A stretch of DNA of 33,585 nt from the NCBI GenBank assembly GCA_944363695.1, contig CALVUW010000001.1:1-33585 (forward strand), read 5' to 3'. Position 1 is the stretch's first letter. Every line of letters begins with the position of its first letter. The notes under the pieces were generated by a model, which did not search any database, was not told the origin of the DNA, and was given only the letters and a program-made list of their open reading frames with translations. A program made the translations under genes and the position numbers. Below, piece after piece: positions 1-32,499 of this stretch. Source of the DNA: an uncultured Bacilli bacterium (GTDB lineage: Bacteria; Bacillota_I; Bacilli_A; RF39; UBA660).

Positions 1-1171
1 TCGCATATTGATGACGATATTCTCCCTTAACTGGGAAATAATATTTAGGTTGCATAAGATTAATTAATAGGCTTAAATCTTCACGTGAAGCATGATGTAG
101 CAAATGCTTTTTACTAGATAGACTAATAGCATTGACACCCAACATAGCAATGTCATCCATAACCGTTGCAAAACGTTTTTCTACACCCGGATAAGACGGT
201 TCTGTAATGAAAATCGTATCGGTTGTTTTTAATTTAATATAACGATCATAGCCTTTAATAATTCTTTCTAAGTTAGCAAAAGGCTTTTCTTTCTCATCAG
301 AGATAAAGACAACGACATCTTTGTCATCCAAATTCGTTAAATCACCTATGACATGTTTATCAACGGTTAAATAGTGGTGATTAATTGCATAATGAATTGT
401 ATGCTGTAAACTCTTACCCATAATGACGATTTTTCGATGCGTTTTGCTAACTTCGTCAAAAATTTCTTGAATCCGATAGAAATGAGCCGGAAAAATAGTA
501 GCGATAATCCGATTTGGATTCTTTGCTAATACGTTACGAATAAAATCTTGCACACGATTATTAGGGCTAGTATAACCACTACGCTCTGCATACATAGACT
601 CACATAGCAAGCACAATACGCCTTGCTTGCCCACATAGGCTAATTTACCAATATCTGTTTTATAAATTCCAGTCATCGTATGATCAAAAGTAAAATCACC
701 CGTATATACAATCGCACCATCGGCTGTATATAATACATAACATAAAGCATCAGGAATAGAATGCGTCATCGCAATAGCGAACATACTTTCTTTACCAAAT
801 GCAACTTTAGTATGTGGTTTAATTTCTATTAGCTTACATTTTTCTTTTTGCTCTTCCGTCAAATCTAACTTTAATAATTCTAACGTCAACTTGGCACCAT
901 AGATAGGAACTTCTGGTAAACTTTTTAAAATATCTGGTACAGCTCCCATATTTCCCTCGTGTCCATGGGTTAGAAAGATACCTTTAATCTGTTTACGATG
1001 TTTTATTAAATAATCATAATTAGGAATAATATAATCAATTCCCAAATTCTTTTCATTATCATATTTTAATCCGGCATCAAAGACATAAATATTTTTATCG
1101 ACGGTTACAATATACATATTTTTTCCATTCTCGTTTAAACCGCCTAAACTAAAAATTTTAATTTTACTCAT
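1..1171 (-). CDS. rnj: Ribonuclease J, first ~390 codons (gene runs off the window start)
   Basis: Absent from the ORF track because it is open at the window edge. The minus-strand ATG at 1171..1169 follows an AAGGAG Shine-Dalgarno sequence. The translation MSKIKIFSLGGLNENGKNMYIVTVDKNIYVFDAGLKYD...IKGIFLTHGHEGNMGAVPDIL matches the metallo-beta-lactamase/beta-CASP RNase J of Bacillota. The same frame at the window edge reads ...LMQPKYYFPVKGEYRHQYA, which also fits. The metal motif reads HGHEGN, like RNase J2, rather than HGHEDH. Confidence 0.85.
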   Translation of the reverse strand, partial: MSKIKIFSLGGLNENGKNMYIVTVDKNIYVFDAGLKYDNEKNLGIDYIIPNYDYLIKHRKQIKGIFLTHGHEGNMGAVPDILKSLPEVPIYGAKLTLELLKLDLTEEQKEKCKLIEIKPHTKVAFGKESMFAIAMTHSIPDALCYVLYTADGAIVYTGDFTFDHTMTGIYKTDIGKLAYVGKQGVLCLLCESMYAERSGYTSPNNRVQDFIRNVLAKNPNRIIATIFPAHFYRIQEIFDEVSKTHRKIVIMGKSLQHTIHYAINHHYLTVDKHVIGDLTNLDDKDVVVFISDEKEKPFANLERIIKGYDRYIKLKTTDTIFITEPSYPGVEKRFATVMDDIAMLGVNAISLSSKKHLLHHASREDLSLLINLMQPKYYFPVKGEYRHQYA

Positions 1172-14391: not shown

Positions 14392-15813
14392 ATGGAAACA
14401 GTTGAAATGATCAAAAAAGCGTTTGGAAATAGTAGTGACTTAATTGTACGTCCTTTTTATTGGGATCAAGTAGAAGTAACCCTGGTTGAATGTGAAACTT
14501 TAACCAGTTCAACTTTCGTTAATGAATACATTCTGCAACGATTAACTAGGCTAACATTAACACCACAAAATAAAGAAACAGCTTTATTCAATCTGTTACC
14601 AAATAATTCAATTACCATCCTTAACGATGTTCAGCAGATGTATGATTATATTTGCAAAGGCTTTGCCTTATTAGTTTATGACGAGAAAAAAGCAATGGCT
14701 ATTGAAGCGAAAGCAGACCTAGACCGTGGTATTGGTCAAAGTGATAGCGAAAGTACCGTTCGCGGTAGCAAAGATGCTTTTAATGAAAATCTTAATACCA
14801 ACGTAGGGCTGATTAGAAGAAGAATACGCAGTGAACATTGTTATTTAGATAGTCTTTATATTGGCAAACAAACCAGAACGAAAATAGGTATTATGTATAT
14901 GAATACGATTGTAGAGTCCAAAAATGTGGACACGATAAAGAAAAGATTACAAAAAATTAATACCGATGGTATTTTAGATAGTGGCGTCTTAAAAGGTTAT
15001 TTAGAAGATAAACATAATTTCTTTTTTCCCACTGTTATGGCAACAGAACGTCCCGATAAAGTCTCTCAAGCATTACTAGAAGGAAAAATTGCCGTCATTG
15101 CTGATAACTCACCCTATGTATTATTAACACCTAGTTTTTTTGTTGATTATCTACATGCTTCAGATGACTATTATCAAAAATCTTTTAATATTTCTTTTTT
15201 GCGCATCTTACGATTTTTAGCTTTTTTAATTTCTATTTTTGTACCAGCTATTTATATCGCTGTCACTACTCATAACCAAGATGCCATCCCCTTAAATTTA
15301 TTATTAAACTTTACGAACCAACGACAAAGTGTGCCCTTTTCAGCTTTAGTAGAAGCTTTATTTATGAGTATTTCCTTTGAAATTTTACGCGAAAGTGATA
15401 TTAGAAAACCAGCAGCCATGGGCAGTGCTGTTTCTATTTTAGGTGGTCTCATCTTAGGAGATGCCGCTGTAGCAGCAGGCATTATTTCACCCATTATGAT
15501 TATTGTTATCTCAATTTCTGCTATTTCTGGTCTAGCCTTTTCTTCAATGGAAATGATCGCTGCTCTTCGTTCTCTTCGCTTTTTAATGATGGTATTTGCT
15601 ATGTTCTTTGGAGTATTTGGTATTTATTGTGGTGGATTTATTTTATTAGCTAGCCTTAGTACTACTTCTACACTATCGCTTCCTTATCTAGCACCCGTCT
15701 CACCGTTTATCAAAGAAGAAATTGGTGATTCAATCATTAAAACCAAACGAAAAAAAGTGAAAAAGAGAAATCCTTTATTAACAAAAAATACAACGAGAGG
15801 AAGAGATGTATGA
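14392..15813 (+). CDS. Spore germination protein, GerA (A-subunit) family
   Basis: A soluble N-domain contains RGSKDAFNENLNTNVGLIRRRI, followed by a C-terminal multi-span membrane region. At 473 aa it has the typical A-subunit length. Confidence 0.85.
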   Translation: METVEMIKKAFGNSSDLIVRPFYWDQVEVTLVECETLTSSTFVNEYILQRLTRLTLTPQNKETALFNLLPNNSITILNDVQQMYDYICKGFALLVYDEKKAMAIEAKADLDRGIGQSDSESTVRGSKDAFNENLNTNVGLIRRRIRSEHCYLDSLYIGKQTRTKIGIMYMNTIVESKNVDTIKKRLQKINTDGILDSGVLKGYLEDKHNFFFPTVMATERPDKVSQALLEGKIAVIADNSPYVLLTPSFFVDYLHASDDYYQKSFNISFLRILRFLAFLISIFVPAIYIAVTTHNQDAIPLNLLLNFTNQRQSVPFSALVEALFMSISFEILRESDIRKPAAMGSAVSILGGLILGDAAVAAGIISPIMIIVISISAISGLAFSSMEMIAALRSLRFLMMVFAMFFGVFGIYCGGFILLASLSTTSTLSLPYLAPVSPFIKEEIGDSIIKTKRKKVKKRNPLLTKNTTRGRDV

Positions 15814-16790
15814 AAAAAATATTACTAATCGGCTGTCTTTTATTTCTTCTTAGTGGTACACCCTATACAGAATTAAATAATATTCGCATTGTTGATACTA
15901 TTGGTATTGGTAAAACTGAAGATGGGTATTATCTATATATTAGAACGGTACCAACCAATAACGACGACGAAACGGTATATCGCGTGGAAGGAAAAAGTCT
16001 TGGTTCTTTATTTCAAGAAACAACAAAATTAGCTTATAAAACCGCTTATTACAAACATTTAGGAACCGTCATCATCGAAAGTTCACTTTTAGAAGCAAAC
16101 AGTCAAGAAATTATTTATTTTTTAAAAGAAAAATTTACCCAAATCAATTACTTATTACTAACCACACCAGACTTAGCTGCCTTTTTTGCTACTGATATAG
16201 ATACCTATGACTTAGAACAGTTTATAAAACAGGAACAAGCCACCAATGGAACGATTCACATTCTAACATTTGATCAACTATATGCCAACTTTTTAGATCC
16301 CTTGGAACAAGCCGCTATTCCTCAGATTCGAGTTCAAAATCAAGAAATAAATGTCGCTGGATTACAAATTATTGATGAAAGCACAGTACTTAATCAACAA
16401 CAAGCTAGAAGTCACTATCTATTAAGTGATCAATTAACTAAGTTCCAGCAAACCATTACATTAGATCAGCAAGCTTACAATTTACAACTATATAACTTGG
16501 GCACTACCATCCGTTATCAAAATAATACACTAACCATTAAGATAAAGGGAATGCTTGATAGTGACGATTTTGTCGCTAATTATAAGAAACGACTAGAAGA
16601 AGCCATAACCAAACAGTTAACAGATGAAATAATAGCATTGCTAGCCGAGCAGCAACAAGAAAAAGCTACTACTACGCCTATTATCAACACTATTTATCGA
16701 AAAATTAGGAATCAAAAACGAAGTATCGAGGCCTTTCACAAAGCAACTTTAATCATTGATATAAATTGGCAATGGAAGGGAGAGATTTAA
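15810..16790 (+). CDS. Spore germination lipoprotein, Ger(x)C family
   Basis: Has a signal peptide with the lipobox LLIGC. The start overlaps the A-subunit stop by 4 nt. Size (326 aa) and position fit a C subunit. Confidence 0.7.
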   Translation: MKKILLIGCLLFLLSGTPYTELNNIRIVDTIGIGKTEDGYYLYIRTVPTNNDDETVYRVEGKSLGSLFQETTKLAYKTAYYKHLGTVIIESSLLEANSQEIIYFLKEKFTQINYLLLTTPDLAAFFATDIDTYDLEQFIKQEQATNGTIHILTFDQLYANFLDPLEQAAIPQIRVQNQEINVAGLQIIDESTVLNQQQARSHYLLSDQLTKFQQTITLDQQAYNLQLYNLGTTIRYQNNTLTIKIKGMLDSDDFVANYKKRLEEAITKQLTDEIIALLAEQQQEKATTTPIINTIYRKIRNQKRSIEAFHKATLIIDINWQWKGEI

Positions 16791-17687
16791 ATGGAACATC
16801 AAAAAATTAGTACTCTACAATTATTTTCGCTCGTCTTTTTCTTAAGTCATGCCTTCTTCTTATTTTGGGGTAATACGATTATCAAGGCCAGTGGCAACGA
16901 TACGCTACTAGCTTGTCTACTAGGTACTATTCTAAATATTTTTCTCATAAAAATATTACTATGGCTACGAAAAAAGAACATTAATAGTCCCAAAATAGGT
17001 AATTATATCTTATTACCCCTATTTCTACTTTTAACATTTGTTTTATTACAGCAAATGAGTCATTTTATTCAAAGTAATTTTCTAGAGCAAGGAAATCTAC
17101 TACAAATCGGTATTTTATTAATTTTAATTGCTATTATTATTTCCAAACGAAACATCCCCCAAGTAGCAAGTCTTGCCTTTTTATGCCTCATTATATTTTG
17201 TATTGGCTTTGCTAGTAATATCATCGGAATGGTTCCTCTCATTACTAGTGATCATTTAAAACCCCTACTCACCAATGGGATCATACCTATCTTAAAGGGA
17301 GCTTTATTATTTAGTTTTCATACTATATTACCGTTATTATTATTACTATTTGTTCCCTATCACAACGTTACTCCAAAAGAAAAACAAAATAAATATATTT
17401 ATTTTGCGCTCATTATTAGTAATTTAATTACCATCATTCAATATACGATGATAAGTTTTGGACCAAGCATACTCGCCGCTTCCACTTATACTTATCCTTA
17501 TATGTTAATTATTCATAAAATTTCTAGTTTCGTAAATCTAGATCGCATTGGTTATTTTATTTCTCTTTACGTCTTACTAGATAGTACTATTTTACTAGGT
17601 TTCATGTTTACCTTAATTAAGATGTTATGGTTTGACATACATAACCATTTTGAGAAAAGTAAGCGTTCTGTGTTGCCAAATCATTAA
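16791..17687 (+). CDS. Spore germination permease, GerAB (B-subunit, APC-like) family, short form
   Basis: A polytopic membrane protein that begins MEHQKISTLQLFSLVFF, typical of B subunits. It starts 1 nt after the C-subunit stop. At 298 aa it is shorter than the usual ~360 aa. Confidence 0.65.
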   Translation: MEHQKISTLQLFSLVFFLSHAFFLFWGNTIIKASGNDTLLACLLGTILNIFLIKILLWLRKKNINSPKIGNYILLPLFLLLTFVLLQQMSHFIQSNFLEQGNLLQIGILLILIAIIISKRNIPQVASLAFLCLIIFCIGFASNIIGMVPLITSDHLKPLLTNGIIPILKGALLFSFHTILPLLLLLFVPYHNVTPKEKQNKYIYFALIISNLITIIQYTMISFGPSILAASTYTYPYMLIIHKISSFVNLDRIGYFISLYVLLDSTILLGFMFTLIKMLWFDIHNHFEKSKRSVLPNH

Positions 17688-18114
17688 AATATGTACTTTG
17701 TAATGTACCAGTTGTATCAGCAGCAACCGTCGCTGGCGTTACCACCAATTTAAGGCCATTTGTTTCTTCTGATACGGTAAAAGCCGGATTAGCTTTCATC
17801 GTCTGCATCTCTGCTTCAATATCATTTACTGGTGCAGGATTTAACATGGTACTACGCTGATATTGAAAACTAACTTTACTTAAAGTGGTACCTATATAAT
17901 TAGTTGTTACACGAATTGTATAAGTAATTGGTTCTACTACCGCTTGTCTTGTGCAAATTAGAGCAGTTGCTGTATCAGTTGGTATTTCAATATTTGGAGT
18001 CGTTTCTTTGAAAACCATCCGAAAGATAGGAGGCAAAGCAATAATAAATAGCAATAGAATCATAATGAGATATACCAATACATTTTTTATATCAAAACTT
18101 TTACTGGCCTTCAT
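17617..18114 (-). CDS. Hypothetical secreted or anchored protein (N-terminal TM, Thr-rich ectodomain)
   Basis: One N-terminal hydrophobic span, VLVYLIMILLLFIIALPPIF. No recognised family. Its 3' end overlaps the convergent gerAB-like ORF by 71 nt. Confidence 0.45.
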   Translation of the reverse strand: MKASKSFDIKNVLVYLIMILLLFIIALPPIFRMVFKETTPNIEIPTDTATALICTRQAVVEPITYTIRVTTNYIGTTLSKVSFQYQRSTMLNPAPVNDIEAEMQTMKANPAFTVSEETNGLKLVVTPATVAADTTGTLQSTYFNDLATQNAYFSQNGYVCQTITS

Positions 18115-18511
18115 TAACTCTTTCCTCCTCCTCTTCTACAATATAATGTTTATTTAAATTTGTTACAAATTTCATAATGAAAATCACTAAGAAAGTACAA
18201 GGAATAATAGGAAAGAACATAAAGAAATAATAGAAGAAACGATTCTGCGCTATTGCATTTAGATCACGTACTGTCTGAATAAAAGCGGCACTAAAGCCAA
18301 GGGATACAGCTAGTAAAATAGCGCCAAAAATAATTCCTAACACCGCACTCCAGTAATTAACAACGTAATTTGTTTTATTAGGATATTTGTCTTTGTTCTT
18401 TAAATTATATATCAAACAAAAACAACTAAAAATAATCATTAACACTAGTAATGGTACTACAATATACCATATTAATTTTTCCAAATTAGACAAAGAATAA
18501 ACCACCGTCAT
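18101..18511 (-). CDS. Hypothetical small integral membrane protein (about 4 spans, acidic tail)
   Basis: Has hydrophobic segments and an EEEEE tail. It overlaps the downstream ORF by 14 nt, which suggests an operon. Confidence 0.5.
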   Translation of the reverse strand: MTVVYSLSNLEKLIWYIVVPLLVLMIIFSCFCLIYNLKNKDKYPNKTNYVVNYWSAVLGIIFGAILLAVSLGFSAAFIQTVRDLNAIAQNRFFYYFFMFFPIIPCTFLVIFIMKFVTNLNKHYIVEEEEERVNEGQ

Positions 18512-18605: not shown

Positions 18606-18635
18606 AAAAAAAAACTACTAACCATTTGTTAGTAG
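18606..18635 (-). terminator. Rho-independent terminator of yceD-rpmF
   Basis: The minus-strand transcript reads CTACTAAC-aaatg-GTTAGTAG, a perfect 8-bp stem. It is immediately followed by T9 and starts 8 nt after the rpmF stop. Confidence 0.8.
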
Positions 18636-18642
18636 CTCATGC

Positions 18643-18846
18643 TTATTCTTCTACTGTTACAACTGTTTTACCTTTATAGTTACCACATTTTGGGCAAACA
18701 CGATGTGGTTTAATCATTTCACCACAATTAGAACATTTAACCATACCTGGAAGTTCTAAAGCATTGTGTGATCTTCTCATTCTTTTTCTTGTTTTTGATA
18801 CTTTTCTAAATGGTACAGCAAACATTTGAATATTTAATGCTAACAT
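18643..18846 (-). CDS. rpmF: 50S ribosomal protein L32 with a 9-residue N-terminal leader
   Basis: The core [18 protein letters not shown]...[23 protein letters not shown] is canonical zinc-ribbon L32. The ATG at 18846 lies 7 nt after GGAGAGGAG. The ORF-track TTG start at 18864 lies inside the yceD coding sequence and is unlikely. The internal ATG at 18825 has no SD. Confidence 0.85.
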
Positions 18847-18850
18847 GTTA

Positions 18851-19315
18851 TCACTCCTCTCCAAACTCTTCTAACAATTCTTTAAACGGGTTAGTCCCAC
18901 TGGTATTTTGATAGTCTTGTTCATCTATCAATTTCCAGCCATCCCCAGAAAAGTTGGAATAATCATTCACCCTACTATATCGAATGGGGATCTCTAGTAC
19001 TATATTTTCCCATAAAATGTCCATAATAGCAAGAGTATTTTCGCTATTTTTTATTTTTTCTTCTACATTTTCATCGATTTCACATGCAAACGGATAAGTA
19101 ACCGGCTCCAAAGAAACAGAATCTGGTATAATCATCTCGCCTGTAATGGTAGCTTTTATATAAGGACTATTATCCACTAGTTGCAAGCTTCCTGTCACTT
19201 TTATTGGTTTCAACTCCATAATATCCGTATTTTGATAATATGTAGAATCTAGTGAATACGTACCTTCAATCGGCAATACATCCACTTCATGTCGTAATAA
19301 TGCGCCAATGTCCAT
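18851..19315 (-). CDS. yceD: YceD/DUF177 family protein (large-subunit rRNA accumulation protein)
   Basis: Occupies the conserved position directly upstream of rpmF. It is an acidic 154-aa protein with the DUF177-like layout. Confidence 0.7.
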
Positions 19316-19324
19316 TTATCTCAC

Positions 19325-19831
19325 CTACTTTTTGATCACAAACCAAAACATCAATAATATCATCGTAAGACCCGCTGACATATTTTCTTTTACCACATAT
19401 GTTTTTTCAAATACACTAGCCACATCATCCACAATATCGACAATCCAGCTTTCCAAATACTTAGGAATACGATGTCCTAAGGGAAACATATGTGTTTTAA
19501 TAATATCCTGTTCTAAATCATCTAGTTCAAAATATTGCAACGAATTAGATAAAGCTTGATCCGCATGCTTTACTAATCGTTTTGATTTTGAGACAGTATC
19601 TTCATCATGAAAGAAATCATGTAAAACCGATCCGCGAGCAGTTGCTTTATAATTCAGATGCAAAAACTTTGTAATCTTATAAGAATAATAAGAAACACGA
19701 ATCATATGATCATATCGATTCATGCCATGATGTATACAATTTTTCATTGTTTGATATTCTTTATGTGAAATGATTGGTTCAATAATCTGATTAAACTCAA
19801 TATCAGGATAAACTGTTTTAAGTCTCATCAT
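19325..19831 (-). CDS. HD-domain phosphohydrolase with a C-terminal hydrophobic tail
   Basis: Shows NRYDHMIRVS followed by GSVLHDFFH, giving the H...HD metal motif. Size is 168 aa. Confidence 0.65.
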   Translation of the reverse strand: MMRLKTVYPDIEFNQIIEPIISHKEYQTMKNCIHHGMNRYDHMIRVSYYSYKITKFLHLNYKATARGSVLHDFFHDEDTVSKSKRLVKHADQALSNSLQYFELDDLEQDIIKTHMFPLGHRIPKYLESWIVDIVDDVASVFEKTYVVKENMSAGLTMILLMFWFVIKK

Positions 19832-26247: not shown

Positions 26248-27519
26248 TCATGCACTTAATTCTATCGTAAATGGATCAGATTTCGTGCCACTTCCCCCAG
26301 TGATGATAACGCTAGATTTTAGATTCATGGATGGCCGCACGCCGAGCGTATCCGAAGGACTAACGTAGTTCGCGTCGCCATAGCTGGTGACGCCACGCAC
26401 GCTAGACGCAGTATATGAGGTTAACGTCCAATAAGATGTATTATTACCATATCTATCAAATTGGCCAGCCATTAATTCTCCTAACCGGAGTAGTCCTACC
26501 TGAGCAGTGGTTGTATTACTCGTAAGATCATTCCCGGTGGCGCTACTATATTTAGCTCGCCGATAACTTTGTCCACTTCCTACTGTTCCCAAATACCATG
26601 TCGTACTTGGTTCTATCATACCGCTATATTCGCTACCTACATAACTCGTTAGATAGTCTCCGTTTAAGAAGGTTCCTATCGTATTACTACTTGAATATGT
26701 TACTGTTTCTCCAAATGCACTTTCGATGAAACTTTCTGAACTTTTCAACGGTTCAGCACTTGTTATTTTAGTTAACCCTGAAGTTTCGTGACTAACTATT
26801 CGATATAATGTATTCTCTCCAATTCAGAACTCTATATATTCGCCACTATATCTGGTGTTTAACAAGGTACCATTTAGATTACTATCATTATCTCATTCTA
26901 AGCGATACGGATTATTTACAGTTCCGTCCCCGCTTTCGATTTTAACATCAGCTTTTAAATTGACAGATGGGCGTACACCTATGTTAGCACTAGGGAGTAA
27001 TAGGTTTTGATTTGCATCACCACGCTGTCCGATGTAACGCACATGATATGTACTATATTGGGTTATATATGGAGTTAACGTCCACCACCAAAGTCCATTA
27101 TTTAAATAGCCATTTTCATAATCGGTTCCATTATAACTCATCGTATATTCATAGGCATTCAGTAACCCTGCTGCATCTGTTACCATAGTAGTTTCAGCTG
27201 GTTTAGTAAATTCTTCTGTCATTGTAGCATTCCACACACTATCCATCTTAATAAAATTCTCTGGTGCTCTTAAATTTCCTAAAAAGCCATCGACACTGGT
27301 ATCATTTAGCCACTGTTCCATAACACTGTCTTCAAAAACAGGATTATCTCTACTTGCATTAAATACTACTGAACTAATATTCCATTGGGTTACTAGTTTG
27401 ACGCTGTTATCAGTTGTATCTATACTTACTGCTCTCCATAACTTTCCACTATACCAAATATAGTTATTCGGATCCGTTCCCGTGATAAATGTTTGATCGG
27501 AATCACTTGTATTGATCGC
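26248..27519 (-). pseudogene. Tandem two-module secreted-protein gene interrupted by two in-frame TGA codons. Each module ends in an aromatic-rich patch followed by GVRPS(V/M)NLK.
   Basis: ORFs 26893..27747 and 26248..26748 share one frame (26892-26748 = 144 nt). Stops lie at 26895-26893 and 26826-26824. Module 1 reads ...NYIWYSGKLWRAVS...LWWWTLTPY...IGVRPSVNLK. Module 2 reads ...EYIEF*IGENTLYRIVS...SYWTLTSY...LGVRPSMNLK. The architecture resembles the WW(L)RSP...GVRP-type domains I recall as DUF6273, but I am not sure of that family name. Confidence 0.6.
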
Positions 27520-28114
27520 TCCGTTTGAGGCAACTGTTCGGAATTTCCGAACAGTTGCTAATTCATCTAATTCTCCTTCTTCAAATATATGCTTTATATG
27601 CTCTGATATATTTGATTTACTTGAATTATACAATCTCACTAGTTGTTCTTGATTTAGCCAATTTGTAAGTCCCATATGTTCTTTCTTTGAATCCGCTCTA
27701 TTGTATATAGTTTCAGCTGCTGTTTGATGAGATACTGCATAATGCATTTTATTTTGTACTTTTTTAAAAAACTTAATTGTAGTAGGAGATTTAGAATCAT
27801 AGTCTACACTAGTTGCATAAATATCAGTAGTTTTTGATAAAATCTTCTTTCAGGCAACTTTATTTCTCTAATCTCTGCGAGTAAAGATCGTAATAGTCTT
27901 CATCAAAGAAAGCACCATTTGCCATCCTCTTTTTATCAATAATATAACCTTTTTTTGAAAACTCTTTTAATATGTGAGTGGCCCATCTTCTAAACCGAAT
28001 TGCTCTATCCGAGTTGACTCTATATCCAACAGAAATAATTGCATCTAAATTATAGAATTCTATACGATATGTCTTTTCATCTTCTGCAGTATGTACAATT
28101 TTTGCACATACTAC
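27520..28114 (-). pseudogene. RhuM-family (virulence protein RhuM-like) remnant: N-terminally truncated, frameshifted at least twice and segmentally permuted
   Basis: Three-frame reading gives SVVCAKIVHTAEDEKTYRIEFYNLDAIISVGYRVNSDRAIRFRRWATHILKEF..., then a shift near 27885. Next comes LLAEIREIKLPERRFYQK, then a shift near 27832. Then TDIYATSVDYDSKSPTTIKFFKKVQNKMHYAVSHQTAAETIYNRADSKKEHMGLTNW. This is followed by an N-terminal-type segment, LNQEQLVRLYNSSKSNISEHIKHIFEEGELDELATVRKFRTVASNG. Confidence 0.7.
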
Positions 28115-28490: not shown

Positions 28491-29399
28491 TTATTTATTT
28501 TTTTCTTTAGAATGTAACACCGATCTTGGAAAATTATGATGATACACTTCTTTTAAATGCTCGGTTGTCACATGCGTATAAATTTGAGTCGATGATAAAC
28601 TTTCATGTCCTAATAATTCCTTTACCGATAGAATATCACAACCTTCATTTAATAAATGCGTTGCAAAAGTATGACGAATCATGTGCGGAGAAATATTCTT
28701 ATGAATAGAAGTCTGTTTGATTAGCTTATCCAAAATATAAGCTACACCTCTAGTTGTAATCACTCTTCCTTGATTATTTAAAAACAGATAGGAACTATTA
28801 AATTTATTTAACTGTTGATAACCATCTTTTAAATACAAAGATAAGCTATCAGCAGCGTATTCACCATAATTAACAATTCTTTCTTTACTACCTTTTCCAT
28901 GAATTAAAATCTGTTGATGATACTGATTAATATCTTCTCGTTTAATCTTAACCAGTTCTCCTACCCGAATACCAGTAGCATATAATATTTCTAGTATCAG
29001 GCGATCTCGTTGCCCAATCGGCGTTGTTATATCAGGAACAGCTAATAACGCTTCGAGTTCATTATATTCAAAATAACGTGGTAGGCGTTGCTCCTGCTTA
29101 GGACTAGTCACTAGTAAAAAAACATTACTTTCTACCTTTTGCTCAGCACATAAATAACGATAAAAACTACGTAAAGAACTTAAATGGCGACTAATGGTTG
29201 AAGCTTTATCTTGTTGATTATCTTTTAAATACATCAAATAAAGGCGGACGTCACTATAAGTGATTTTCAAATAAGACAAACCTTCTTGTTCTAAATAAGA
29301 AAAATAAGCTTCTAAATCTTTCCGATAACTATCAACTGTACAATCAGAATAATGACGCTGGTATTCTAAATACTCTAAAAAACGATTAACGTCTTCCAT
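28491..29399 (-). CDS. xerC: Tyrosine recombinase XerC/XerD family
   Basis: All catalytic blocks are present: RDRLILEILYATGIRVGE, HGKGSKER, HMIRHTFATHLL and LLGHESLSSTQIYTHV. The preferred start is the ATG at 29399 (MEDVNRFLEYLE...) rather than the ORF-track start at 29438. Confidence 0.85.
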   Translation of the reverse strand: MEDVNRFLEYLEYQRHYSDCTVDSYRKDLEAYFSYLEQEGLSYLKITYSDVRLYLMYLKDNQQDKASTISRHLSSLRSFYRYLCAEQKVESNVFLLVTSPKQEQRLPRYFEYNELEALLAVPDITTPIGQRDRLILEILYATGIRVGELVKIKREDINQYHQQILIHGKGSKERIVNYGEYAADSLSLYLKDGYQQLNKFNSSYLFLNNQGRVITTRGVAYILDKLIKQTSIHKNISPHMIRHTFATHLLNEGCDILSVKELLGHESLSSTQIYTHVTTEHLKEVYHHNFPRSVLHSKEKNK

Positions 29400-30225
29400 G
29401 TTTTTCTGGTCCTTCATCATTAAAACTGATGGCAGCATCTACTTCTTCACTAGTCAAGAACTCTTCAAATTCTCTACCATAATATGTTTGTTGGTTAAAA
29501 GCAGCGGTTTGCCTTTCTACATAGCCCTCTTCATTAAAAGGAGGGATAGAAACGGTTTGGTTAGTAGCAGCAGAATTCTTTCTAGTGATCTTCATAGCAG
29601 TATTAATCTTCTTAGGTTGATAAAGTTGAAAACCTTTTTTTGGTTGTTTCATTTGATGAACTAAAATTTTACGGAAATTGGAATAATGGCGTGCTTCCTG
29701 CATTAATTCTGTCATACCCAGACCATAAGATGCTTCGCTGCTATCAGCGTTTAAATAACGTCGAACGTGCCAAGCAAAATCACCTTCATCTGGTAACAAA
29801 AGAGATAAATTACCTAAGTTACGATCCGTGACGGCTTGTTCAATAGGCTTTAGTGTCCGCTGTACTAGTGGCATAGCAACGGGTACTAATTTTAAATTTT
29901 TATATCCCGTAGAAGTTAAAGCCATTTTTTTCTGTAACTGATCAATTACTTCTACTAATTCTGGCTGATTAAAAATAACCCGTTGATAATAAACAGTATG
30001 ATCATTAGTAGAACAACGAATAGCAAATTGATTTTTATCTTGATATTCGATAGGCAATTTTTTACTAATGGTATACAAATTTTCTGGCGCTGTAAAACGA
30101 TCAATCGCTTCTAATGAGTCTAAAGCAATACCATCTATTTTAACGACCTCTTCTTCTTGATATTTATTTCCTTTAGCATATTTATTATATATAGATCCCA
30201 CTAATTCGTAATATGTTTTGGCCAT
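29386..30225 (-). CDS. Hypothetical protein (279 aa), 3' end overlaps the xerC start by 14 nt
   Basis: A complete ORF starting with ATG. No family recognised. The overlap ...AAACATGGAAGACGTTAA contains the xerC ATG. Confidence 0.55.
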   Translation of the reverse strand: MAKTYYELVGSIYNKYAKGNKYQEEEVVKIDGIALDSLEAIDRFTAPENLYTISKKLPIEYQDKNQFAIRCSTNDHTVYYQRVIFNQPELVEVIDQLQKKMALTSTGYKNLKLVPVAMPLVQRTLKPIEQAVTDRNLGNLSLLLPDEGDFAWHVRRYLNADSSEASYGLGMTELMQEARHYSNFRKILVHQMKQPKKGFQLYQPKKINTAMKITRKNSAATNQTVSIPPFNEEGYVERQTAAFNQQTYYGREFEEFLTSEEVDAAISFNDEGPEKHGRR

Positions 30226-30898: not shown

Positions 30899-32499
30899 TT
30901 ACACCACAGTAACACTACTTCGTTCAAACATAACATCTGCACTGGTTACTGATGACATATCCCATAAGTTACTAACTCGTATTTCTGTTAGGCTACTCGT
31001 TCCATAAAACATACTACTCATATTTGTTACATTTGAAGTGTTAAAACTAGTTAAATCTAGTTCTTCTAGTGCATAACTATTAGTAAACATATTGGCCATA
31101 GAAGTCACACTTGATGTATCAAAACTAGTTAAGTCAAGTTCTTTTAATATAGATACATTTTGAAACATACCACCCATAGTCGTTACTTTTGAAGTATTAA
31201 AACTACTAACATTTAAATAAGTCAAAGCTCTACAACTTTCAAACATACCTGACATATTCGTTACGTTGGAAGTATCAAAGTTAGATAAATCAAGTCTGAT
31301 CAAATGCCAGCAATCCTGAAACATGCCTTGCATATTCGTTACTTTTGAGGTATCAAAACTACTGATATTTAAAGTTTCTAATTGACTACATTGATAAAAC
31401 ATCCACTGCATATTCGTGACTTTTGCCGTATCAAAGTTTGTTAAGTCTAAATCCGTTACTTTTATGCCTCGAAACATTTCACTCATAGCCGTGACATTTG
31501 ATGTATTAAAATTGGATACGTCTAAACTGGTTAAACCACTTCCACTAAACATTCTCACAATATTCGTTACCTTCGATGTATCAAAGTTACTAATATCTAA
31601 TTCTATTAAATTCGAATCAGATGCAAACATATCACTCATACTAGTCATTTGAAAGGTATCTAGTTTCGAAAGGTCTATAGTATTTACATTCGTAAAACCA
31701 TAAAATAAATGATTACAATTAGTAGGCGCGATTAAGGATCCGTCTCCTCCTATCGTTAGTTTGTAAGTACTATTCCCACTGCCATCATCTTCTATGTAAG
31801 CAATAACACTTCCATCTCCTGCTTCTGATACATCCCAGCTTTCTATGGCGCTATCGGGTATCAGAATATCTTCTTTAGTCTCAACAGAAGTAATAGAATC
31901 TTTATAAGCATAATAATCATCTGTTGAGGTAGATATGCGTCCACCTTTTAATACCGCATACTTCTTTTGAATTGCTTCGATTCGTAGTTTGCCACTAAAT
32001 ACTTCATTGTAGTTAGCTGTACTATCTTCTTTTAACCATAATCTTAATTCATAACTTCTACTTTGTCCTACATTTAAGATACTATCTTCTATTTTTCTAT
32101 TATCTGTCTCTGATAATAAGCCACCTTCTCTTGGTCCTTCATTCATCCTTAGATCATATTTAATATTACTATCATCTACTCTGATATCACTTGCTTCTAT
32201 TTCAGCATCATCTAAATAGATTTCATAACCAGCAGCAACTGTTCCTGTGTTTTCTACGGTAAATCGATAAACCACTTCTTGCGCTTTTCCTTCTTCATCA
32301 CTCATGGGATATGCTTCTGCAATGTTGATGACTTCACTACTATTTTCATCTAAGATAAGATTAAGGGTACCGGCCTTTAAGACATATTCTTTTTCTCCTC
32401 TTAACGTAGTCGTTAGCTACGCATAGGTAATTCCTACTGCTACAACTAATAAAATGATGACAATTCCGATTAAGATATAGATTGCTTTATTTTTTTCAT
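30899..32499 (-). pseudogene. DUF285/BspA-type leucine-rich-repeat surface protein gene with a TasA/camelysin-like signal region, disrupted by a TAG codon and a homopolymer frameshift
   Basis: The ORF 30899..32305 frame continues upstream as ...KAIYILIGIVIILLVVAVGITYA*LTTTLRGEKEYVLKAGTLNLILDE. The TAG lies at 32419-32417. The ATG at 32499 (behind AAAGGAGGAG) is out of frame by one base at the T7 run at 32490-32496. The C-terminal half consists of about 10.5 repeats of the LDLSNFDTSNVTNMSxMF type. Confidence 0.7.
30902..31720 (-). repeat. About 10.5 tandem in-frame coding repeats of ~25-26 codons (DUF285 units)
   Basis: Protein-level periodicity: SMSDMFASDSNLIELDISNFDTSKVT / NMQGMFQDCWHLIRLDLSNFDTSNVT / NMSGMFESCRALTYLNVSSFNTSKVT, and so on. 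Confidence 0.8.

Follow-up and report, generated by a model that had tools for sequence, protein, structure and literature searches.

Ribosomal protein bL32 is probably made as a pro-protein in the organism studied here: its Prp-type propeptide, MLALNIQMF, is predicted to be removed by the cysteine protease Prp after F9, so that bL32 would start at AVPFRK. We examined the rpmF gene in a 33,585-nt stretch of DNA (the window) together with its homologues. From the comparison we consider it rather likely that this uncultured gut lineage has two chromosomally encoded ribosomal Prp substrates, bL27 and bL32, the latter having acquired the signal by an insertion of 24 nt that resembles the L27 leader of the lineage.

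The rpmF gene and its leader in the window

The window has a GC content of 30.7% and carries relA, secDF, dtd, GerA-type germination genes and a gene for a DUF285 protein. The features around rpmF are collected in Table 1.

Table 1. Coordinates of rpmF, its leader and the neighbouring elements in the window
Feature	Position	Strand	Basis
rpmF, pre-bL32, 67 aa (9-residue leader plus canonical Zn-ribbon bL32)	18643..18846	minus	ORF, Pfam PF01783, PDB alignment
Propeptide codons 1-9, MLALNIQMF (P9-P1 relative to the predicted Prp cut)	18820..18846	minus	Homologue conservation
Predicted scissile bond F9-A10 (TTT GCT)	18817..18822	minus	F and A invariant; leaderless relatives; known Prp F'A cuts
Shine-Dalgarno (SD) GGAGAGGAG, within the yceD 3' end, 7 nt upstream of the ATG	18854..18862	minus	Sequence
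yceD (DUF177), conserved upstream partner of rpmF	18851..19315	minus	Pfam PF02620, E=4.8e-5, below gathering threshold; synteny
HD-domain protein gene, first of a probable HD-yceD-rpmF transcription unit	19325..19831	minus	Weak Pfam HD match; synteny
Promoter-like site upstream of the HD gene	19900-19872	minus	
Intrinsic terminator directly 3' of rpmF, 11-bp stem then T-run	18612..18638	minus	

The rpmF ATG is at 18846 and the stop at 18643; positions 18817-18846 are codons 1-10 (M1 to A10), and the N-terminus of pre-bL32 reads MLALNIQMF↓AVPFRK (the arrow marks the boundary between leader and mature protein). An earlier note on this DNA had described an N-terminal leader translated from an SD-backed ATG at that position, and both the position of the SD and the open reading frame confirm it. 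The yceD stop codon (TGA, 18853-18851) lies 4 nt ahead of the rpmF ATG and the SD is inside yceD, so translational coupling of yceD and rpmF is likely. The yceD-rpmF synteny is kept in loci L001-L009 and L217-L220, where the HD gene is syntenic too.

Residues 10-64 of pre-bL32 matched positions 1-55 of the 56 in the Pfam profile Ribosomal_L32p (PF01783, E=3e-26), and the cysteines of its Zn-ribbon CxxC…CxxC (C38, C41, C51 and C54) are invariant in a 38-sequence alignment. Matches to bL32 in the PDB reached E=1.8e-19; the bacterial chains align from about query residue 10, and the leader is absent from 39 of 39 matched PDB bL32 sequences. A relaxed 7-residue Prp motif, whose expected frequency we roughly estimate at ~2e-7 per position, occurred a single time in the six-frame translation of the window. 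The leader motif in rpmF is more than chance.

Conservation of the leader among relatives

Among 5.8 billion proteins searched there were 1011 matches to L32, and in the best 120 of these M[LM]xL[DN]IQ[LMF]F stood directly ahead of AVP without exception (120/120). A scan of GTDB species representatives yielded 80 L32 loci, in which the in-frame sequence ahead of AVP was reconstructed; overall, the leader was present in 47 of the 84 L32 loci examined (mostly species-representative genomes). These two counts answer how widely the leader occurs, a point that the earlier note had proposed to settle by aligning orthologues. In the 38-sequence alignment F9, A10 and V11 were invariant and L4, I6 and Q7 were conserved in at least 90% of the sequences, and the conservation of the leader equalled that of mature L32. 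In the 47 leader-bearing species, P1 Phe, P3 Gln, P6 Leu and P1' Ala were present in all 47, P4 was Ile in 46 (Leu in one) and P5 was Asp or Asn in 46 (Glu in one), and P7 and P8 were variable, as in L27. The leader is confirmed as a conserved clade-wide feature that is not specific to the window.

The 47 leader-bearing loci come from metagenome-assembled genomes (MAGs) of 20-35% GC from animal guts, labelled mostly as uncultured Bacilli, Mollicutes or Tenericutes, with a few other bin labels; one of the genomes is Ca. Fimihabitans, under Mycoplasmatota incertae sedis. Leaderless close relatives have a near-identical mature L32, and their genes pass from the ATG straight to GCN GTN CCN (M↓AVPFRK). 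The two forms of rpmF differ by an exact 24-nt indel right after the start codon (21 nt in four species), and the context (a)ggagtga-N4-ATG is common to most low-GC leader-bearing and leaderless relatives. The 9-aa leader is placed immediately before the N-terminus seen in the leaderless orthologues, as a propeptide would be. It had been noted earlier that a cut between F and A would give the canonical L32 N-terminus; the start of the leaderless relatives (M↓AVPFRK) and the start of the Pfam profile at A10 agree with this.

Paenibacillus, Kyrpidia, Rubrobacter and other more distant L32 matches have no leader. Among 1.84 billion cluster representatives, a Prp-like leader was found in about 10 of the best 150 matches, all of them in this L32 subfamily, and the remaining N-terminal extensions among the best 150 are over-called ORFs ending …M↓AVPKRK.

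Translation of the leader and selection on the peptide

The P2 codon of the window happens to be an ATG (M8, 18825-18823), and bL32 might be translated from there (MFAVP…), or the gene might be mis-called. The earlier note had named a start at 18825 among the observations that would overturn its reading. We regard such a start-site artefact as extremely improbable. The SD always precedes the first ATG in leader-bearing rpmF genes and none is found ahead of 18825, and MF-AVP would still be unlike the canonical N-terminus. In place of the internal ATG, 21 of the 47 species have TTA, CTT, CTA, TTT or AGA (2 more have TTG), so that an internal start is impossible in these 21, and the codons upstream of it are nevertheless conserved in frame.

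The leader codons vary synonymously (Leu TTA/CTT/CTA/TTG, Ile ATT/ATA/ATC, Phe TTT/TTC, Asp GAT/GAC), which indicates that selection acts on the peptide and not on the RNA. This bears on the reading that the 24 nt act at the level of nucleic acid or translation (in yceD-rpmF coupling, in mRNA structure or as an autoregulatory leader) and that the peptide is incidental. The likely coupling of yceD and rpmF, with the SD inside yceD and a stop 4 nt from the ATG, would be in keeping with such a role, but the SD/stop/ATG context is mostly the same in the leaderless relatives, so coupling needs no insert. Neither compensatory covariation in the 24 nt nor tolerance of non-synonymous change was seen, and no Rfam family matched within the window. 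We consider an effect of the 24 nt as nucleic acid very unlikely.

Prp and L27 in the clade

Firmicutes make L27 as MLKLNLQFF-ASKKG (S. aureus) or MLRLDLQFF-ASKKG (B. subtilis). No L27 was found in any rpmF locus, and rplU-prp-rpmA was neither in the window nor in the 10 kb past its left edge, where a contig of the window's own species carries other genes. The clade L27 was reached through obg, located at the edge of the leader-bearing locus L045 (ORF-level blastp), and from there through Obg homologues 72-95% identical to it. A single 39.8-kb contig of 34% GC (L212) carries rplU, prp (PF04327), rpmA, a NUDIX gene and obg, with the HD gene, yceD and rpmF ~9 kb downstream of this block. Here L27 starts with (M)VKLLTLNIQLF↓AHHKG and L32 with MLKLDIQMF↓AVPFH; this is the one contig obtained that has L27, Prp and L32 together. 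The order rplU-prp-rpmA was also found in 4 more clade sequence types (L213/214, L215, L216 and L221-223), in which L27 reads …L[KR]LNIQLF↓AHHKG. Along its whole length the clade Prp could be aligned with S. aureus Prp (4PEO/7KLD, E=1.3e-8), and the catalytic His of GHA and the Asp and Cys of DIVC are retained in it.

The earlier note had pointed to a prp gene between rplU and rpmA, and to an L27 leader, as what to look for in the rest of the genome. Both are present in five clade sequence types, in one of them on the same contig as a leader-bearing rpmF, and absent from the window and the 10 kb to its left; from the relatives we infer that prp is encoded elsewhere in the genome of the window's own species. 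The same note had matched the leader to the L27 signal of the model Firmicutes and had counted Ile for Leu as a conservative change. The resemblance to the L27 signal stands, and the change proves to be no mismatch: Ile at P4 is common to the clade L27 (LNIQLF↓A) and the L32 leaders, whereas L27 of S. aureus and B. subtilis has Leu. The six-frame translation of 1.02 Mb of clade DNA contained [LIMFV][DNE][IL]Q[LMFIY]FA 65 times, 57 times at L32 and 8 times at L27 N-termini, and never outside these N-termini.

Two other approaches did not reach the clade L27. A probe joining an L32-like leader to the N-terminus of mature L27 yielded truncated L27 fragments, and the two contigs taken from its matches (L090 and L091) were high-GC Clostridia (56% and 41% GC) and irrelevant. 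A scan of metagenome DNA for AT-rich [LIM][DN]IQxFAxKKG gave many low-GC L27s (…NIQLF↓A[HS]KKG) and missed the clade, because the clade L27 starts AHHKG; its ORFs compared with the L32 loci nonetheless brought out obg at the edge of L045. Covariation at P4 was sought with genomes whose L32 leader has Leu at this position (L031, P0095); L031 has no obg synteny, and its L27 was not reached.

Several observations concern L27 itself. The mature L27 of the clade would begin AHHKG (L212:6746-7039; L213:8442-8732; L215:9263-9556; L221:8546-8836), which puts His for the first Lys in the L27 tail that reaches the peptidyl-transferase centre; to our knowledge, A(S/H)KKG is regarded as a near-universal start of mature L27. 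Several clade rpmA genes (the L212, L213, L215, L221 set) start with TTG or GTG. In another low-GC organism (L116:6747-6779, metagenome contig Ga0213864_10002646) the L27 leader is MLKLDIQLF↓ASKKG, residue for residue the commonest L32 leader of the clade. Ile at P4 of the L27 leader is widespread among low-GC genomes from gut and rumen, and Clostridia have it as well (L090, L091). At positions 1-1170 (minus strand) the N-terminal part of RNase J runs off the left end of the window; the genes there come in the order rnc, 160-aa ORF, RNase J. In a related species (L221) an equivalent rnc–RNase J block is followed immediately by rplU-prp-rpmA, which is not so in the window's own species (L224).

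Fit of the leader to Prp specificity

The published Prp motif is MLxx(D/N)LQ(F/L)F'A(S/H)KK (PMC9405229, PMC9261936). Binding of P1-P3 is the main determinant, replacement of P3 Gln by Ala or Glu abolishes cleavage, and P5 Asn forms a stabilising hydrogen bond (PMC9261936); with the pneumococcal Prp, changing P1 Phe to Ala blocks cleavage (bioRxiv 10.64898/2026.08.10.744006). The fixed positions of the L32 leader (P1 Phe, P1' Ala, P3 Gln, P4 Ile, P5 Asp/Asn and P6 Leu) include the experimental determinants P1, P3 and P5. Prp cuts F'A in L27 (F'ASKK), gp46 (F'ADQS) and gp47 (F'ASNN) (PMC9405229). Past P1' Ala the phage proteins that Prp accepts have nothing in common, so a P' side of AVPF should be no obstacle to the enzyme. 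Judged by its sequence, the L32 leader counts as a propeptide of the Prp type.

Two differences from the clade L27 speak against recognition by Prp: P5 is mostly Asp in the L32 leader versus Asn in L27, and P2 is Met or Leu versus Leu. Prps are reportedly very substrate-selective, and the S. aureus peptide is not cut by C. difficile Prp (PMC9261936). The patchy distribution of the leader could mean that it is easily dispensable.

In the proposed pathway, translation starts at the SD-backed ATG at 18846, as sequence context and comparative data show, and gives a pre-bL32 with a 9-residue propeptide that reproduces the signal of the lineage's pre-bL27, L-[N/D]-I-Q-[L/M]-F↓A. Prp, whose gene is presumed to sit between rplU and rpmA in another part of the genome, would cut after F9 and release a mature bL32 starting AVPFRK, which is the N-terminus of all leaderless bL32. 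By analogy with bL27, processing would precede late 50S assembly or coincide with it, and mature bL32 would then enter the 50S subunit. A clean indel of 24 nt immediately behind the start codon created the leader or removed it, and purifying selection now holds it in a large group of uncultured low-GC, Mollicutes-like gut Bacilli.

The leader might instead be translated and never removed. It would then be a permanent, lineage-specific N-terminal part of bL32 that serves the ribosome structurally or in regulation, its likeness to the L27 signal being coincidental or due to shared binding to another factor. A short extension of bL32 is not necessarily incompatible with the ribosome, since bL32 of Thermus and Deinococcus carries ~3 extra residues (query residue 10 corresponds to chain residue 4-5). 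A retained leader is nonetheless unlikely: the conserved positions are those of Prp recognition, with an invariant F↓A at the canonical mature junction, the motif equals that of the clade L27 down to Ile at P4 and is found nowhere else in 1 Mb, and it is not obvious what a hydrophobic 9-mer would do on a tail inserted into rRNA.

We consider it quite unlikely that the leader is removed by a protease other than Prp, such as an Rrp-like Ntn hydrolase or a general aminopeptidase or endopeptidase. Prp is encoded in every rplU-rpmA locus of the clade examined, and the pattern of leader conservation fits the determinants of Prp. Leaders of the Prp type are not strictly exclusive to Prp, as Rrp can process bL27 in S. 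pneumoniae TIGR4, but Rrp is carried on a mobile element by some pneumococci only and has a different specificity (bioRxiv 10.64898/2026.08.10.744006).

Gain or loss of the leader

On a tree of YceD, the leader state was strongly clustered, with 10 changes where shuffled labels gave 23 on average and never fewer than 18, and every bootstrap tree needed at least 6 changes; the tree is weak, as YceD is a short protein whose sequences in the group share only about 40% identity. The other candidate markers, RelA and the HD protein, could be recognised or placed by synteny in the subclade of the window alone (8 and 10 taxa). These data are consistent with either (i) one gain of the leader followed by several precise losses; or (ii) several gains.

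Variants of the leader were also observed. Of P0411 and P0410, one has a degenerate-looking leader, MKLNITLF↓GALPFRR, and one a leader with Leu at P4, MKLDLQLF↓AVPARR, and a 60-aa leaderless L32 (MAVPFRK…; P0148/P0149) falls in the same 90%-identity cluster as leader-bearing L32. The degenerate variant and the leaderless members of a shared 90%-identity cluster suggest that the leader state is evolutionarily labile, and all the variants together suggest that loss or decay of the leader is ongoing in some lineages.

Comparison with known systems

Processing of the pre-bL27 N-terminus by Prp has been reported for Firmicutes and relatives (Wall et al. 2015), and maturation of the mitochondrial MrpL32 by the m-AAA protease has been reported as well (Nolden 2005; Bonn 2011). 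The system closest to the L32 leader is pre-bL27/Prp (MEROPS C108; PMC9261936, PMC9405229). Both have a 9-12-residue leader ending …L-[D/N]-[L/I]-Q-[F/L/M]-F↓A, at which a cut would expose a universally conserved mature N-terminus, and the lineage has its prp gene between rplU and rpmA. In contrast to pre-bL27, the substrate would be bL32, the P' side reads AVPF and not A[S/H]KK, and rpmF lies outside the prp operon. Also unlike pre-bL27, the L32 leader is limited to one uncultured lineage and was apparently gained or lost repeatedly.

Non-L27 proteins that carry the host L27 motif and are cleaved by Prp have been described in the staphylococcal phage 80alpha, namely gp46 (scaffold, KFNLQFF'ADQS) and gp47 (capsid, KLNLQHF'ASNN) (PMC9405229). 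These are structural proteins of a phage, whereas L32 is a chromosomal, essential ribosomal protein. Hotinger et al. 2022 (PMC9405229) proposed that Prp has a second substrate in the cell, the N-terminus of FlhB; like the L32 case, this proposal is bioinformatic and concerns the motif on a cellular non-L27 protein, although FlhB is a flagellar export protein. L32 is not named as a Prp substrate in that paper (PMC9405229).

The nearest functional parallel is the mitochondrial bL32m (MrpL32), from which the m-AAA protease has to remove the N-terminal region before ribosomes can assemble (PMC5438985), with proteolysis acting as an assembly checkpoint, as it would for bL32. The m-AAA enzyme is an ATP-dependent AAA protease of the FtsH family that proceeds processively up to the folded Zn domain, and the cut is set by structure, not by sequence (PMC5438985), whereas the bacterial leader is 8-9 aa long and ends in a sequence-specific junction; the parallel is a functional analogy only. 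The long, unstructured MrpL32 presequence (71 residues in yeast) also serves import, unlike the bacterial leader, and the two are evolutionarily unrelated.

Implications

Prp is pursued as a target for narrow-spectrum antibiotics, on the premise that its sole essential cellular job is the maturation of L27. The earlier note knew of no description of L32 as a Prp substrate, and our search of the full-text literature on Prp with L27 and L32, and on 'phage-related ribosomal protease', likewise found no mention of it. A 2025 Prp preprint (Dokland laboratory) gives other Prp substrates as unknown. If the prediction is true, (i) bL32 would be the first strong candidate for a cellular Prp substrate besides L27; (ii) a single small cysteine protease would license the entry of two proteins into the large subunit; (iii) with a second, independently evolved ribosomal pro-protein, the Prp signal would prove portable between ribosomal proteins, and not only onto phage proteins; and (iv) bacteria would have a sequence-specific counterpart of the m-AAA/MrpL32 assembly checkpoint. 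Close species with and without the L32 leader would then offer a natural experiment on ribosomal pro-forms, and recombinant Prp with two substrates taken from MAG sequences would make a simple in vitro system. For annotation, leader-bearing rpmF genes are correctly called long, and the mature protein is probably 8-9 residues shorter.

Other features of the window and the lineage

The window encodes GerA, GerAC and a spore permease (14392-17687), and related contigs encode SSPI (L213:15043-15279) and Coat_F (L212:3088-3402). On account of these germination, SASP and spore-coat genes, the lineage, with MAGs labelled Mollicutes, Tenericutes or Mycoplasmatota incertae sedis, is probably an endospore-former and not a true mollicute.

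Directly downstream of rpmF, some strains with an identical L32 protein, probably of the same species, carry a ~10-kb block (L001:10735-20204, L002:10578-20168 and L004:9801-19391) that encodes a 1518-aa FtsK/SpoIIIE-domain protein and proteins of 89 and 1583 aa. In the window (16791-18511) this position is taken by the genes for two small membrane proteins of 136 and 165 aa and by the GerA operon. The block represents strain-level variation, possibly a mobile or secretion-related element.

Beside a gene of the XerC/phage-integrase type, the window has ORFs of 166 and 284 aa with RhuM/DUF6273 matches (26248-27747 and 28491-29438), in place of which other strains have a single 638-aa DUF6273 protein (L001:683-2599); the region is variable or decaying. 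A 468-aa protein of the window (30899-32305) combines LRR-like matches with three repeats of DUF285 ('Mycoplasma protein of unknown function'), as is typical of the surface proteins of Mollicutes and Erysipelotrichia-like bacteria.
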